In this document: positions 304 to 6,605 of the stretch, in pieces
Layout of the letters: each line of letters begins with the position of its first letter
Numbering within the stretch: position 1 is the stretch's first letter
Virus record (IMG/VR): IMGVR_UViG_2698536401_000001
Strand: one strand, 5' to 3'
Length of the DNA stretch: 22,996 bases
Origin: a virus
Lineage: Duplodnaviria > Heunggongvirae > Uroviricota > Caudoviricetes
The notes under the pieces: model-generated
The model's database searches: none
The model's input: only the letters and a program-made list of their open reading frames with translations
What the model was told of the DNA's origin: nothing
Program-made: the position numbers and the translations under genes

Positions 304-1032
304 TTACTCACCAACAGCCCACCAACTGTAATTCATCGATACCGTGTCGCTGGTTGATGACGTTCTGTAAGCAGAATTAAAGCCGGTTAACGTTGGGCCT
401 TCTGCAGTCATCACGAACCCTCGCCCAGCGCCTAAAGGCGCACCGCCATCACCAGAATGAGTAAGCATGGCGCAGTCCGCTTTTTTGGGGAAAGGGATGC
501 TGAATGTAATTCTCATTGTTTGCGTCGATAATGTCGGCGTAACCGCACCACGACCATATTGCAGGATTTTCCCGTTGGGTAATTTCATCCATCCATCACC
601 ACTGGCAAAAGAGGCCATGTCCGGTATCTGATTTCCCCCTGTCCCCACATCCCGTTTTGCCGCTTCTCCCAAACCAAGGTTTTCGAGAGCCGTTTTCACC
701 GTGCCATCCGATTTGATATCACCAAACGGATTCTTGCGGCTCAGGTATTCAACAGCAAACCCCGATCCCAGCAATTCAACAAAACCGGGCAGATCACCAT
801 TATCAAGCACATCCCGTTGCGTTTTGTCACTTACAAACTGGGCCAGAGCTGCAGCAATAAAGCTGGCCTGCCGAATAACCTTATTGACTTGCGCACTGGA
901 TGCTTTCCCTGCTGTAAATCCGGATAAAAGCGCAGGCAACGCTTCCCATTCCTCCTGCGACATAACATTGGCATTTTTACCCGTTGCGAATGCTTTAAAG
1001 TCATTTTTTGCCATCAGAGTAATACTCCCCAT
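304..1032 (-). CDS. tail fiber protein
   Basis: 242 aa. N-terminus [33 protein letters not shown]... matches the conserved N-terminal domain of enterobacterial side tail fibers as I recall it. It is the last structural gene before the assembly chaperone. Confidence 0.65.
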
Positions 1033-1694
1033 GCCCCTACATCAAAACCACTGATGAATTCGTTATCCATATCAAAACCAAAAAATTTTGAACCTTCCGA
1101 TGGGGTTTCCACCGAAGGTGTTTCAATGCCACCCGCCCACACCCCGGCGGCTTTTACTGTGAGATATCCCTGTTTAATTGCAGCAATTAACTCACGCGAT
1201 ACATCTGAAATATCAGTATCAGGAAAGACCCAGACCGATATCGTCATGTCCTGGTTATCGACAATCTGCATTCGCAGCCCGGATCCTGCTGTTGCCGCGT
1301 CAAGAATTGCCGGAAGCGAATCATTCCGTCCGTCCCAGTTATTAATCGCAATCTTCGCTTTAAGAATGACACGATAAGTTTCATCGCTGAGATACATGTA
1401 TCCAGAATCAGGATCATATGGCCCCTGCCATACCCCCTGATCATATCCAAGCCCGTCGGTATCCCAGCTGAAATAGACACCTGAGATAGGCTGGCTGACA
1501 ACACGGCTACGTCCGATCCACAATCCCAGAATGTCAAGTTGCACACCAACCGCAGAGTCAATATCAAATGCAGTAATCAGCCCTCTGGTGGCAGCCGCAA
1601 CATCAATAAGCGGCCGGGTCATCAGATCAACATGCGCAAGAAATTTAGGTTTGGTGGCGTGGTAGTTCGTGATTAGTTCGGTGTATTTGCTCAT
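1014..1694 (-). CDS. baseplate wedge/tail protein (P2 gpI / Mu gp48-like position)
   Basis: 226 aa ORF between the baseplate J-like gene and the tail fiber gene, with short overlaps to both neighbours. Call is from position. Confidence 0.45.
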
Positions 1695-2890
1695 GACTCC
1701 ACCGTTATAACGATATTTTCCGGGGTACAGGACGCAGATTCGTTGTATCTGATATCAATGTTTGATGACGACAAAGCCCCCGGGGATTTCCCAATCGTCA
1801 GTTCCTGAATATCGTAATAGCGTGCATTCCCGCCACTCACCACGCCAAGATTGGCCGGTGAGTAAATGCGACTTAAAAGGACTGAATCACCAATCGTCAG
1901 ACTATTGATATAGTCGGAAATAGCCTGCTGGATCTGCTGCCCTATCTGTGAGGTATAACCCGTAAAAACTTTTAATTTAATCCGGGCATAAACAGGTACA
2001 TCACTGGAACGCGAGAATTTGATTACATGGGGATTGCCGTATTTATCCGGAACCGTAACGGATGTTGTACCGTGAGTGGCTGTCCCCTGACCTTTATTCC
2101 CTCTGATAGCCTGAGCAATATCCGTCACATCACCGCCATCCACAATTACAGCAACAGAGTGTGGTGGTAACCCGTTACCGTCCTCCGAACCAGTATCGTT
2201 TTCATAGAGTTTGTGGCGGGTTACACCGGTAACATTAGAAACAGCACCATCCAGTGCTTCAAATGGGGTTATTGATGGCAATGCAACACTTTGCGACTGG
2301 CGGATACGTAACTCCGCATCAGTTTCTGCCGGAGTGCCCACAGTAGCCGCAGCAGGATTGGTTACCGAAACCCAGCCACGGGTTGGCGTATTAATTTCAG
2401 TGATAGTTCCATCCAGCGCCGCCACTGCACCACTGACAGAACATGTTGCGGTCGCCATCACTGTACCATCCACGCCGACCACCACTGAAGCAGGCAAACG
2501 CCATATCACATTATTACTGTCTTTCACGCTGCCATTAATGATGGTTGTTCCGGCAGTTCCTGTAAGAAGCAAATCAACCGTAGAGTTCGTCGCACCTTTA
2601 CGTGAAATACCATTTATTTTCACGTTGCTGGTCAGTGCAGCCCCATAGCCGGTTGCCGGTGAAAAACAGTTGTAGACAGTTATCGCCATATTATTGGCAT
2701 CATGAATCGCCAGCGCTATCAGAGCCACCATCTGGCCGTCTTTGCTGTCCGGTTCGAGGTAGGCATCACTGCCATAAATCTGCTGAAAATAGCTAATCAG
2801 GGTGCTGAGTATCGTCTGATAATCAGGCGCACTGATCCCCTCTGCGGTTACCTTTGCAGATAAACCAAGAGAATCAAGGTTCAGAGCCAT
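1691..2890 (-). CDS. baseplate J-like protein
   Basis: 399 aa, size and position typical of baseplate J (Mu gp47 / P2 gpJ). ATGA-type overlap with the upstream gene. Confidence 0.55.
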   Translation of the reverse strand: MALNLDSLGLSAKVTAEGISAPDYQTILSTLISYFQQIYGSDAYLEPDSKDGQMVALIALAIHDANNMAITVYNCFSPATGYGAALTSNVKINGISRKGATNSTVDLLLTGTAGTTIINGSVKDSNNVIWRLPASVVVGVDGTVMATATCSVSGAVAALDGTITEINTPTRGWVSVTNPAAATVGTPAETDAELRIRQSQSVALPSITPFEALDGAVSNVTGVTRHKLYENDTGSEDGNGLPPHSVAVIVDGGDVTDIAQAIRGNKGQGTATHGTTSVTVPDKYGNPHVIKFSRSSDVPVYARIKLKVFTGYTSQIGQQIQQAISDYINSLTIGDSVLLSRIYSPANLGVVSGGNARYYDIQELTIGKSPGALSSSNIDIRYNESASCTPENIVITVES

Positions 2891-3243
2891 TACGCCTCCG
2901 ATGTAACAGTCGTTATTCCATAAAGAGTGTCGATTTCAGCGGAAAACATGACACGTCGGGTCGTGGTATCCACCGTCGTATTGAAAGAGAGGATTGATTT
3001 AACGCCCCGCGTTTCGAGGATGCGCTTACGGATCGCCAGGTTGTAGGTTTCCGGCTTCTGCTTACCGAGTACGGACTGGATCCACGGAGTCCCCTCAGTG
3101 GTGTCGAGAAACCATTGCCCATACCACAATTCGAATCGCGTTTTTACCGCCTGCGCCACGGCCTCCGGTGAGTTAATCAGCCAGGTGTCATCACCGCTGC
3201 CAAAGGTGTAATCGCCAACGGCGTCTTCACGTCTGTATCGCAT
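2890..3243 (-). CDS. baseplate assembly protein (gpW/gp25-like)
   Basis: 117 aa ORF between the spike and baseplate J genes, the canonical position of the small gpW/gp25-like wedge protein. Confidence 0.45.
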   Translation of the reverse strand: MRYRREDAVGDYTFGSGDDTWLINSPEAVAQAVKTRFELWYGQWFLDTTEGTPWIQSVLGKQKPETYNLAIRKRILETRGVKSILSFNTTVDTTTRRVMFSAEIDTLYGITTVTSEA

Positions 3244-3998
3244 CAGTTAGGCGCTCCTGTGTTACCGCCGCCGGTCTGTACTCCGCCGTGCGTGTGCGTC
3301 ATCAGGCTCTTACCACCAGCTTTTACATCGTTAGTCACCGTGACAGGGCCAAGCATCGTCGCGGTGCCGCCGCTTTCGCCCATCCCCTGAGAAAGATTCC
3401 CGTTTATTGTCACGTTGCCGTTTAGCGTGATGGTGGGTGATGTGATCGTGGTTCCTCCTTCTGCTGTCGCCGTCAGCGCGCCGGGGGTTTGAACCGTGAT
3501 GTTATGGCCTGCGGCCACTTCCACAAACGCAGCGCCATCATCAGTACGCAGTTGCGCGGCGCTGGTGCTGATTCCGCTGATTTTCTGCGCCTGCGACTGG
3601 GGACCTACAATACAAAACGCATCCGATAAATCATGCATTCTGTCATCAACAGGCTCCTGTATTCCGCCGTTCTGCCACCAGAAATCAATACAACGATCGG
3701 CAAAAATCACCAAACATTCATCACCGGCTTTAACCGGGAACGTTAGCGTGCATCCTCCGCCGCGCGGGAATACCACTGGCACATCCACCAGCAGCGGGTA
3801 ATTTTTGGTAACGCGATTGCCGTCGTTATCCGTTTCAACCGAACGGATAGAAGGCTGCACAACCGCCGTCACAGCGTCAGGATCGAATGACTGGACGATG
3901 CCAGGCAAAGCGACTCGGATCTGGTTCTTTGTTGTTTCCCGTTCAGATTTGAATGTTTCAGCAAGGTCGCCGCTGCGGGTCTGGTCAGATACTGCCAT
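3243..3998 (-). CDS. baseplate central spike protein (gpV / Mu gp45-like)
   Basis: 251 aa with Gly/Thr-rich repetitive C-terminal half (TITSPTITLNGNVTINGN...THTHGGVQTGGG) typical of spike proteins. ATG at 3996-3998 preceded by GGAG. Confidence 0.55.
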   Translation of the reverse strand: MAVSDQTRSGDLAETFKSERETTKNQIRVALPGIVQSFDPDAVTAVVQPSIRSVETDNDGNRVTKNYPLLVDVPVVFPRGGGCTLTFPVKAGDECLVIFADRCIDFWWQNGGIQEPVDDRMHDLSDAFCIVGPQSQAQKISGISTSAAQLRTDDGAAFVEVAAGHNITVQTPGALTATAEGGTTITSPTITLNGNVTINGNLSQGMGESGGTATMLGPVTVTNDVKAGGKSLMTHTHGGVQTGGGNTGAPN

Positions 3999-4010
3999 TT
4001 AGTAGGCTCC

Positions 4011-4043
4011 AGAAAGCAAAAAACCCGCCGGGTGGCGGGTTTA
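4011..4043 (-). terminator. rho-independent terminator closing the inserted cassette
   Basis: Minus-strand transcript reads UAA-ACCCGCC-ACCC-GGCGGGU-UUUUUUGCUUUCU: a 7 bp GC-rich stem (plus 4023-4029 with 4034-4040), 4 nt loop, then a U-run. It overlaps the stop codon of the 4041..4457 gene. Confidence 0.6.
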
Positions 4044-4457
4044 TGAATCGTAGGTTTTCAATTTTTCGAGTTCATCAGGAGGAAGTTCTATGAAGGTTTC
4101 CTCTGCTAATTTTATCAGCCGGGGAAGCATCGAATCAGCTTGCTGATGAGCGTTTGGGCTGATGATTGCCAATATCTGATAGTGTTCATCGATATAAAGA
4201 TGCTGAGCATATACCAAAAAATTATCACATGTCCGTTCACTCAGAGATGCTTCTGGAGGCCAGGGTTTATCGCCAGGTAGCTTTAAGTGAATTTTCCTGA
4301 TGTTGGCAGCCATCGCATCATAGTTACGTTCAAAACCGCCTAACGAACCAAAACACCAGAACTGGGAACCCTTTGAAATATAATCGGCAAGCATTTGAGC
4401 ATACTTATGTGCTGCAGCTAAATGACGCAATTCTCCCGTGATACTGACTTTTGCCAT
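4041..4457 (-). CDS. YafO-family toxin-like protein (putative ribosome-dependent mRNA interferase)
   Basis: 138 aa. Segment IRKIHLKLPGDKPWPPEASLSERTCDNFLVYAQHLYIDEHYQILAIISPNAHQQ...LIKLAEETF aligns by eye to the E. coli YafO core as I remember it (IHL, P-PP, S-RT-D, LVY-Q, DE, LAI, P-H, AE-F). ATG lies 1 nt after the upstream gene's stop. AT-rich relative to flanking genes. Confidence 0.55.
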   Translation of the reverse strand: MAKVSITGELRHLAAAHKYAQMLADYISKGSQFWCFGSLGGFERNYDAMAANIRKIHLKLPGDKPWPPEASLSERTCDNFLVYAQHLYIDEHYQILAIISPNAHQQADSMLPRLIKLAEETFIELPPDELEKLKTYDS

Positions 4458-4458
4458 G

Positions 4459-5031
4459 TCACATCCATTTAGGGGCGTCGGCTCCCAGCATCTTATGCGA
4501 TGTTGAGATCAGTTCAATCGCCTCTTCACGGGTAACATTATCTGACAAGAGTTCAGCCTGGAAAGGCTGCGATTGCCTAACTTCAGCGGCCAACTGAGTT
4601 GCAGTGTTCTCGACGGCGGTCAACGCACGAACATATTTGCGTTTTAATGGGCGCAACATTTGCAGATGGCCTTGCCACATAGGGGACCTTTCCGCTTCAG
4701 AGAACATATCCACTAAATGTCCTTTAGCATTTCGGCATGCCTTGGCAAGACCTTCGAGATGGGATAAAAACCCTTCCGGAAGCTCATCAACAATGATTCT
4801 TCCATTTCGAAAAGCTTCGAGATGAGACATGCCTTCCTTCGCGGTATTTTCGATTTCTTGAGCGCGTGCAGCAATCGCGGTACAACGACGAAATGCCTCT
4901 TCAGCATCTAATCGTTGTGGCAGTTCACAAGCATTAGAGATCAGGGGTTTGAAAGCACCGTTAACAGCTTCCTGAACCTGATTCATTTGTTGTGTAATTG
5001 TTGCCAGCGCAAATGCGTAGCTAATCGCCAT
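4459..5031 (-). CDS. hypothetical protein, upstream partner of the YafO-like gene (candidate antitoxin/regulator)
   Basis: The track ORF begins at a TTG (5037). The first in-frame ATG is 5029-5031, preceded by AGAGGGA 7 nt upstream, giving about 190 aa. Stop TGA is separated by 1 nt from the downstream ATG. No family recognised from the sequence. Confidence 0.5.
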   Translation of the reverse strand: MAISYAFALATITQQMNQVQEAVNGAFKPLISNACELPQRLDAEEAFRRCTAIAARAQEIENTAKEGMSHLEAFRNGRIIVDELPEGFLSHLEGLAKACRNAKGHLVDMFSEAERSPMWQGHLQMLRPLKRKYVRALTAVENTATQLAAEVRQSQPFQAELLSDNVTREEAIELISTSHKMLGADAPKWM

Positions 5032-5037
5032 ACCCAA

Positions 5038-5199
5038 TCCCTCTGTCGTTTTAAACGACTATACACCACTTATTCAAAGTTAGCTGAGCGCTAAAAGTTC
5101 GCAAAGTTTAGTGATCATGCAACCACCTAGCAAGCGATAAAAAATCATTATTTAGTGAATGTGAACAAACTCAACACTATGCAGAAATGTAACTTTTGG
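5038..5199 (-). promoter_or_regulatory. AT-rich intergenic region, putative promoter for the two-gene cassette
   Basis: 162 bp non-coding AT-rich spacer inside an otherwise tightly packed operon, directly upstream of the cassette. Contains a TATAGT -10-like hexamer and TTGCTA/TTGCAT -35-like hexamers on the minus strand. Exact promoter not resolved. Confidence 0.3.
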
Positions 5200-5541
5200 T
5201 TAACCAGAAACCTTTTTACACGGGAAAGAGCCGATGATTTTCGGCGCATCCATGCTGTTCTGCAGCAGTTGGACGTTCAGGAAGCGCGTTTCGGTACCCG
5301 GACGACGAATGTATTCAAAGCCGTAGTTGTTGCCGTCTTTGGCAGGCATTAGCCCCATATCAATCTTAATGCCATCAGCACCAAGATTTGTAATTTTCTG
5401 AGATGTGACGCGTTCACCGTTAATCATGTCCATTTCCCCCAACCTTGCAGTGATGGTGTAAGGTCCACAATAAGCGGTGTAACCGCTTGCAGATGCCCCA
5501 AATGACATAAAGGCAACAATTAAAATGGCTAAGGCTTTCAC
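5200..5541 (-). CDS. small Sec-exported protein with N-terminal signal peptide (moron candidate)
   Basis: 113 aa. N-terminus MKALAILIVAFMSFGASA|SGY is a classic signal peptide with an A-S-A cleavage site. Two Cys in the mature part. The start is a GTG preceded by GGGGGT, 2 nt after the hub gene stop. Confidence 0.5.
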   Translation of the reverse strand: MKALAILIVAFMSFGASASGYTAYCGPYTITARLGEMDMINGERVTSQKITNLGADGIKIDMGLMPAKDGNNYGFEYIRRPGTETRFLNVQLLQNSMDAPKIIGSFPCKKVSG

Positions 5542-5543
5542 AT

Positions 5544-6605
5544 TTACCCCCGGTTAAGCGAGTCCTGAGTGCGGAGATCCGCCGCGCCACGCGCTTCGCA
5601 CATCATATCCATGTACCACGCCAGGCCCCTTGTATCGCCAGTGTACATAATCCCGCGCACAATATAAACGCCATCCGTTGCGATGCTGGCAGGCTGCGAT
5701 GTGGTGCCGCTTAGCGTGATATTTCCATCCGTGTTCTGGTCGGTGATCTGACCACCAGCCATCGCAATATCGTTGTTCGACAAGGCGGTACGATACACGG
5801 AAGCCTGATCCAGCTGAATGAGTCCGTTAACCCGGATGTTCGGATTAATAAGCGCGCGGACGTTTACGCCGTTACCGATAGTCTGCTGCGGCATGCCAAT
5901 AAGCCCGGTAGCGCTGTTGAGCACAATCGCTTCATGAACATATTCGTTATTCTCCACCATCTGGCGTTGACCGTCCACGAATTGCCATGTTGCGCCACAT
6001 TGACCGGCTACGTTATCCATAAGATGCCGCGTCATGCCAAAGAGTACCCGCCCCCGGGGGAATACAGTAGCAGGCATTTCAGGCGTCAGGCCTTCGGTCG
6101 CGCCTTTGGCTTCGAAGTCTTTCATCAGCGCACGGTTCACATCAGCGACCGTGTAACCGGCAGCCAGCGTCTGTGAGGTTATACTGGTGGCAAAAGCCAG
6201 ATCAGTATCTGCTGCCTGAATCAGGACGTAGGTATCAACCGGACTGTCTTTTCCTGTGACCGAGTAGCGAATTTCACCGCTGAAAATCAGTCCGTAGTTG
6301 CGGCCATCTCTCTGGCCCACGTCCGCCGCGTCAACTTCCCGCACGGTCCCTACGTCGCTTGCTGACACCTCTGGCGCGACACCGTCGTAACCGGCAATCA
6401 GACGCACTTTCGAAAATTCCTGCCCGGTGATTCGGTTCACAGTATCTGCCGAGAGGTTATAAATTTTGATAGTCCCTACCCGGGACGCGCTGCTGATGTT
6501 GAACCAGTCGATCGTAAAGGTGACTTTGAAATCACTTAGCTCAATTCCCTGACCGTTCCCGTCCACAAGCTGCAGCTCGAAATGTCTCATCCAGTTCTGT
6601 GACAT
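5544..6605 (-). CDS. baseplate hub protein (P2 gpD / Mu P-like)
   Basis: 353 aa ORF at the hub position, downstream of the tape measure and two small tail genes. Call is from size and synteny. Confidence 0.45.
   Translation of the reverse strand: MSQNWMRHFELQLVDGNGQGIELSDFKVTFTIDWFNISSASRVGTIKIYNLSADTVNRITGQEFSKVRLIAGYDGVAPEVSASDVGTVREVDAADVGQRDGRNYGLIFSGEIRYSVTGKDSPVDTYVLIQAADTDLAFATSITSQTLAAGYTVADVNRALMKDFEAKGATEGLTPEMPATVFPRGRVLFGMTRHLMDNVAGQCGATWQFVDGQRQMVENNEYVHEAIVLNSATGLIGMPQQTIGNGVNVRALINPNIRVNGLIQLDQASVYRTALSNNDIAMAGGQITDQNTDGNITLSGTTSQPASIATDGVYIVRGIMYTGDTRGLAWYMDMMCEARGAADLRTQDSLNRG

Follow-up and report, generated by a model that had tools for sequence, protein, structure and literature searches.

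Why would the structural operon of a tailed phage carry, in its middle, two AT-rich genes with a non-coding spacer in front of them and an intrinsic terminator behind? We examined this question for the IMG/VR record IMGVR_UViG_2698536401_000001 (Caudoviricetes), whose whole stretch of 22,996 nucleotides (nt) is called the window throughout. The host element is a SEN34/Brunovirus-like contractile-tail prophage of E. coli, and the two genes, here called gene A and gene B, lie between its baseplate hub and baseplate spike genes. A first-pass annotation, made from the letters of the DNA alone, had read the locus as a moron, an autonomously expressed accessory module carried inside a late operon. 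The variable presence of the segment among relatives, its deviating base composition and the mobility of the gene pair all support that reading. In our judgment the segment at ~4043..5209 is probably horizontally acquired moron cargo in a recombination hotspot, a toxin-antitoxin-like pair of the YafO family that would be expressed in the lysogen and has a likely role in defence or addiction. Every relevant gene (hub, 113-amino-acid [113-aa] gene, A, B, spike) is on the minus strand, and the order of transcription is hub, 113-aa gene, non-coding spacer, A, B, terminator, spike. The features of the locus, in window coordinates, are as follows.

4041..4457, minus strand: gene B, 138 aa, YafO-family toxin (PF13957)
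4459..5031, minus strand: gene A, 190 aa, phrog_35514 ("unknown"), putative antitoxin and dedicated partner of the YafO-family toxin
5032..5199, minus strand: AT-rich non-coding spacer, 168 bp, holding the candidate promoter and 5' leader; no annotated gene in the RefSeq copies
4015..4042, minus strand: intrinsic terminator, with stem-loop 4042..4021 and T-run TTTTTT 4020..4015
5544..6605, minus strand: baseplate hub gene, 353 aa, phrog_196 "baseplate hub" (E value, 1.3e-87), with a weak Pfam match to E217_GP41
5200..5541, minus strand: 113-aa gene, phrog_3443, with an N-terminal signal-peptide-like sequence; starts 2 nt past the hub
3243..3998, minus strand: baseplate spike gene, 251 aa, PF18352 phage protein N-terminal domain (E value, 6.6e-44), with a GpV Apex motif

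The hub-spike slot and its cargo

The hub and the spike (in RefSeq, "membrane-puncturing spike protein") are backbone genes that mark the left and right sides of a slot with changing contents. Among 5426 complete E. coli genomes, the hub-to-spike backbone was found in 321 and A-B in only about 38. A scan of IMG/VR with a 20-mer of the terminator returned at least 120 loci, 118 of them directly upstream of the spike gene and 97 also holding the hub. These 97 loci carried at least 12 types of cargo, with A-B present in 5 and no cargo in 4. Other cargo in relatives included DUF4282, a 258-aa gene together with a HEPN-annotated gene, an HMG-box protein and DUF2335, and unrelated genes also occupied the slot in SEN34, vB_EcoM-689R2 and YP3. 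Alignment of the relatives thus agreed with the moron reading: A-B is not universal at this position, where other cargo or none may be found, and the same pair recurs elsewhere in unrelated phages.

Homology to the relatives is lost within the final few codons of the 113-aa gene, where the variable segment has its left recombination joint. It picks up again at the stem of the terminator, the fixed right boundary of the slot. These breakpoints place the variable segment at ~4043..5209, in place of ~30 bp in empty-slot phages. A search for target-site duplications and terminal inverted repeats found no direct or inverted repeats flanking the cassette; a transposon-type insertion was therefore rejected, and exchange by recombination rather than transposition is indicated.

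Gene packing and base composition were examined next to these boundaries. Neighboring genes in the tail operon overlap or abut (gaps of -29 to +14 nt), as the first-pass annotation had claimed, and the spacer is the sole gap of more than 50 nt in the structural operon that lacks an annotated gene, two other apparent gaps holding small genes in the RefSeq copies. The spacer had been given as 162 bp (5038..5199); it is indeed AT rich, but its length and start needed correction, since gene A begins at ATG 5031 and not at TTG 5037, which makes the spacer 168 bp (5032..5199). Homologues, RefSeq (190 aa) and Shine-Dalgarno spacing agree on this start: all A homologues open with MAIS.., and the Shine-Dalgarno sequence AGAGGGA (5044..5038) stands 6 nt before the ATG. 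At 36.9% GC, the spacer falls in the lowest 0.24% of 168-nt intervals across the structural operon. GC content at third codon positions (GC3) was 0.419 for A (z = -2.2) and 0.374 for B (z = -2.9), the two lowest values among the 26 window genes (mean of the other 24, 0.561; standard deviation, 0.064). The cassette therefore differs clearly in composition from its flanking genes, and the earlier description of two AT-rich, coupled genes holds, the A-B junction being a single nucleotide (TGAcATG).

The commonest alternative cargo, present in 42 of the 97 loci (L036, L097, L087 and 39 others; L013 828..1956), was a pair of genes encoding proteins of 276 and 153 aa. RefSeq annotates the smaller protein as HEPN domain-containing, and neither protein matches Pfam or PADLOC; this pair may be another toxin-antitoxin-like or defence pair. 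One further cargo, a 176-aa membrane protein (L102 365..896, in coordinates of the extracted segment), gave a weak PADLOC match to PycTM (E value, 2.6e-4) that is well short of proof, and no slot cargo, A-B included, gave a significant PADLOC defence match. SEN34 has a 138-aa gene at the slot (SEN34_21; L002 2291..2707), which we considered as a homologue of B and rejected: the two are equal in length without any sequence similarity, a coincidence.

Gene B and its partner, gene A

Gene B matched the Pfam family YafO_toxin (PF13957) with 62.6 bits (cutoff, 25) and is labeled a YafO family toxin in RefSeq. Its product and YafO of E. coli K-12 share 25% identity over 125 residues (E value, 5e-7), and His57, Arg75 and His104 are invariant through its own family and K-12 YafO. 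B is predicted to adopt a RelE-like (BECR) fold in a high-confidence model with RelE/HigB-type structural matches, and its profiles had no real sequence match in the PDB. Presumably, B is an mRNA endoribonuclease that blocks translation.

In contrast to B, gene A has no Pfam or NCBIfam match, and all database sources call it "hypothetical"; its profile found no sequence relative in the PDB. An AlphaFold2 model (predicted local distance difference test score, 77.5) is all helical, with four long helices and a short C-terminal helix carrying a conserved ..PKWM tail, and its structural matches are generic helical bundles only, such as MukF and FlgN/FliJ-type chaperones. The A family is tiny: it forms 36 clusters at 90% identity and has 14 representatives in a collection of 1.84 billion proteins. 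Our literature search found no described YafO partner of this type and no YafO-based defence system. The gene A family is thus new to description, while the moron layout is already known.

What ties A to B is their linkage. Every A homologue examined, a set comprising copies from Pantoea, Klebsiella, Serratia, a bat-gut siphovirus and two remote relatives (22 to 23% identity), was followed within 0 to 2 nt by a YafO_toxin gene of 137 to 142 aa. The two genes have also diverged together (pairwise identities, r = 0.97), with A the more divergent in 45 of 45 comparisons. An antitoxin-first gene order is typical of YafO modules (PMC11980606). As read from the sequences, gene order, a junction of 0 to 2 nt, strict co-occurrence and faster evolution of A correspond to the usual signature of a cognate antitoxin-toxin pair, and most likely A binds and neutralises B. 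The penultimate residue of A, Trp189 (within window 4459..4470), is invariant even at 22% overall identity, while nearby codons and the start context of B vary; Trp189 is a candidate key contact with the toxin.

The pair also moves as a unit. Siphoviruses carry A-B, again with the 1-nt junction, either downstream of the tape measure gene or in the interval that separates this gene from the tail chaperone; the pair also occurs in the nin regions of Klebsiella lambdoid prophages and once in a non-phage context. Prophages of E. coli, Klebsiella, Enterobacter, Citrobacter, Serratia and Pantoea host the family, and one Klebsiella toxin variant was present in 926 blocks of the assembly collection.

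Candidate promoter, leader and terminator

The following elements were located in the spacer.

5105..5133, minus strand: candidate sigma-70 promoter, with -35 TTGCTA 5133..5128, a 17-bp spacer and -10 TAAACT 5110..5105
5147..5174, minus strand: alternative promoter-like site TTGAGT-16-AATAAT, scoring 9/12 in the consensus scan and not conserved in other cassette copies
5080..5094, minus strand: leader inverted repeat 1, TTAGC-N5-GCTAA, conserved in L009, L010 and L019 apart from a single compensatory change (CTAGC..GCTAG)
5045..5059, minus strand: leader inverted repeat 2, GTCGTTTaAAACGAC, directly 5' of the Shine-Dalgarno sequence and kept in relatives via U-A to U-G changes

The candidate promoter lies 73 nt upstream of the gene A ATG. 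Its score against the consensus (8/12) is below the scanner threshold, and the case for it comes from comparison between loci and not from the consensus scan. The pattern TTGnnn-16 to 18 bp-TA(C/A)ACT was present upstream of A in 9 of the 10 loci examined, L025 being the one without it. In eight loci it stood 70 to 100 nt from A; in L024, the non-phage locus, the distance was 33 nt. The loci that keep this element span several diverged types of upstream region, so that the surrounding sequence differs, and the TAAACT of the window aligns with the TACACT of the Klebsiella and bat-phage copies (L009, L010).

Between this element and gene A, the leader RNA was no more stable in folding than shuffled sequence (z = 0.35), and covariation in the two small hairpins was too slight to call (4 sequences). 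In cassettes of the Serratia/Pantoea type (L016 to L018, ~2340..2420; L005 and L006, ~3930..3990), the promoter-like element is separated from the ribosome-binding site of A by a GC-rich hairpin with a T-run behind it, a structure that looks like a leader terminator or attenuator. The window leader instead has a hairpin without a T-run.

At the other end of the cassette, the first-pass annotation had placed a textbook intrinsic terminator (4011..4043). The stem-loop and T-run are present and strong in a terminator scan (9 pairs, 6 of them G-C, with a loop of 4), and the spike gene begins 16 nt past the T-run. What did not stand is that the terminator is the cassette's own. Relatives keep the arrangement AACCCGCC-loop-GGCGGGTTTTTTGCTTTCTGGAGCCTAC..ATG(spike), with some variation in loop and stem, no matter which cargo they carry. 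It is also kept in four empty-slot relatives (L045, L073, L141, L145), which belong to an IMG/VR set, empty slots included, that was selected by the terminator sequence itself. Among eight relatives fetched by backbone homology, seven had the terminator and only YP3 was without it. Because it is conserved across all cargos and empty slots, the terminator belongs to the slot as a resident element and did not arrive with the A-B cassette.

A near-identical terminator followed by GCTTTCT also ends A-B in unrelated phages, with compensatory changes in the stem (L009, L010, L016 to L019). From this sequence similarity, the terminator may double as a portable recombination joint for moron exchange. 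A scan of 3800..5400 against Rfam gave a sub-threshold match of the terminator to the Pseudomonas small RNA P9 (E value, 0.43), which was on the opposite strand and was rejected.

The moron reading and its alternatives

These data suggest the following model. In the lysogen, A-B would be transcribed from its own promoter, TTGCTA-17-TAAACT (5133..5105), and the resident terminator (4042..4015) would stop transcription, leaving the spike and later tail genes silent. During lytic growth, Q-modified late transcription would read through the promoter region and the terminator; a near-identical prophage has a gene for a Q-family antiterminator on the strand of the late genes and upstream of them. 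B would be an RNase toxin that A restrains; loss or titration of A would set B free, and the likely benefit of this would be abortive-infection or superinfection defence of the lysogen, or prophage addiction. Whereas the accessory and mobile nature of the pair, its composition, the family and fold of B, the exclusive linkage to A, the promoter-like element and the terminator are observations, promoter activity in lysogens, toxicity of B, its neutralisation by A, read-through by Q and the biological role are what we infer from them.

Several observations weigh against this model, and they fall into two groups, the first of which concerns the proteins. B reached 31.4 bits against the NCBIfam YafO equivalog NF007377, which has a cutoff of 153. 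Since it is so far below that cutoff, B represents a distant branch of the YafO family and is no ortholog of the E. coli protein, and its activity or specificity may differ. Gene A gave a probability of 0.2% against YafN in hhalign, resembles no known antitoxin and has no detectable DNA-binding domain, so canonical autoregulation is unsupported. At 190 aa it is twice the size of YafN, and it is not markedly more acidic than B (isoelectric point, 5.98 versus 5.83). Its antitoxin role is drawn from context. Neither A nor B had a match in PADLOC-DB v2 at an E value of ≤0.01. An alternative that accommodates these points is that A serves B as a co-factor, sensor or chaperone, or that B is a domesticated, non-toxic protein of RelE fold, and that there is no functional toxin-antitoxin system. 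The size of A, its helical structure with generic matches only, the lack in it of a DNA-binding or known antitoxin domain and the score of B under the YafO cutoff are as this explanation would have them. However, antitoxin-first order, the 0- to 2-nt junction, strict co-occurrence and the faster evolution of A argue for a cognate pair, as do His57, Arg75 and His104 of B, invariant through K-12 YafO, and we consider the explanation unlikely.

The second group concerns expression. The consensus promoter scan alone was not above chance (3 sites found versus 3.6 expected), and the window promoter matches the consensus at only 8 of 12 positions. The resident terminator means that the unit is not strictly self-contained: the first-pass annotation was right that a terminator follows the genes, but that terminator belongs to the slot. 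Moreover, because it is co-oriented with the late operon, the cassette would be expressed in lytic growth as well, where its main role could lie. A second alternative is that A-B is a mobile pair lacking a lysogen-active promoter and reached only by Q-dependent late read-through, with a lytic role such as the use of an RNase, moderated by A, to shut off translation in the host or in a competitor. The orientation of the pair, the weakness of the window promoter in a scan that did not exceed chance and the terminator-like hairpin ahead of A in Serratia/Pantoea-type copies are all consistent with such late-only expression. Nevertheless, the promoter-like element is kept in 9 of 10 loci, including early-region and non-phage contexts that have no late transcript, and a resident terminator directly downstream fits an insulated unit expressed in the lysogen; we therefore regard late-only expression as improbable. 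Scarcely credible is the notion that A and B are conserved baseplate proteins with a structural or assembly role and that the spacer is just a gap within the operon: the genes do sit among baseplate genes in the same orientation, but most relatives lack them and have unrelated cargo or nothing instead, the pair also resides in nin regions and in a non-phage context, and B belongs to the YafO/RelE toxin family, with a composition unlike that of the flanking genes.

A more far-reaching version of the lysogen-expressed moron can be put forward tentatively, and we hold it to be rather doubtful as a whole. Gene A may found a new family of antitoxins or sensors: helical bundles of ~190 aa that always keep the C-terminal Trp, lack a DNA-binding domain and work solely with YafO RNases of one phage-borne clade. 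The pair would then be an undescribed prophage abortive-infection system that moves between moron slots in unrelated phages as a promoter-A-B-terminator unit, with the shared terminator as recombination joint.

Comparison with described systems places the cassette as follows. Like E. coli K-12 yafN-yafO, it has a toxin in PF13957 with shared His, Arg-Thr and His positions and a RelE-like predicted fold, and the antitoxin-first order and tight coupling listed for YafO (PMC11980606). In contrast, B is only 25% identical to its K-12 counterpart and far below the equivalog cutoff; the K-12 antitoxin YafN is a 97-aa protein of the Phd/YefM type, unlike the unrelated 190-aa helical bundle found here; and yafNO is chromosomal, in the dinB operon, whereas A-B is phage borne.

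Phage morons are exemplified by HK97 gene 15, which has the tail chaperone gene on one side and the tape measure gene on the other (Juhala, Hendrix; PMC3594210), and the A-B layout fits the published moron definition (PMC3594210). The cassette is extra DNA relative to its relatives, has deviant GC content, an upstream promoter-like element and a downstream terminator, and lies inside a tail operon; other A-B copies occupy exactly the gene 15 position. It differs from gene 15 in being a two-gene, toxin-antitoxin-like module and not a single membrane protein, and from morons in general in that the terminator is resident in the slot, common to all cargo types and empty slots, and that prophage expression is putative.

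The slot also resembles the defence hotspots of temperate phages and their satellites, sharing with them a fixed position between conserved genes and many alternative small cargos, among them the HEPN-annotated pair and A-B. It differs from them in the lack of a significant PADLOC match, anti-phage activity being hypothetical here. Such hotspots were reportedly described in P2 and P4 by Rousset and colleagues in 2022, and BstA prophage defence (PMC8585504) is a further point of comparison.

Taken on its own, the slot is a clean, comparatively documented docking site for morons inside a myovirus baseplate cluster, where interchangeable cargos land upstream of a resident terminator that would insulate the downstream late genes. 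Gene A represents a widespread family, as yet unnamed, whose members partner YafO-type toxins. Should A turn out to be an antitoxin of a new kind or a phage sensor, the RelE/ParE superfamily would gain a new antitoxin fold, and the pair would be a candidate system for prophage defence. With at least 12 cargos, most of them unannotated, the slot would also become a place to mine for more defence or exclusion genes.

Two further observations concern the neighboring genes. The first-pass annotation had set the cassette directly between hub and spike; this is correct on the spike side, but on the hub side the 113-aa gene (5200..5541) intervenes. That gene was found in 80 of the 97 related IMG/VR loci, and the gene after the hub is itself variable, with forms of 113, 176 or 241 aa (alternatives in L046, L103 and L014). 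Since every form opens with a signal-peptide or lipobox-like sequence, there may be a second, adjacent variable position after the hub for a secreted or lipoprotein accessory gene. Finally, the distal genes on the baseplate/tail-fibre side (window 304..2890; Baseplate_J, DUF2612 and the next open reading frame) had a GC3 of 0.44 to 0.46, compared to ~0.57 to 0.67 in the rest of the structural operon, a drop that suggests a second mosaic boundary near 2890.

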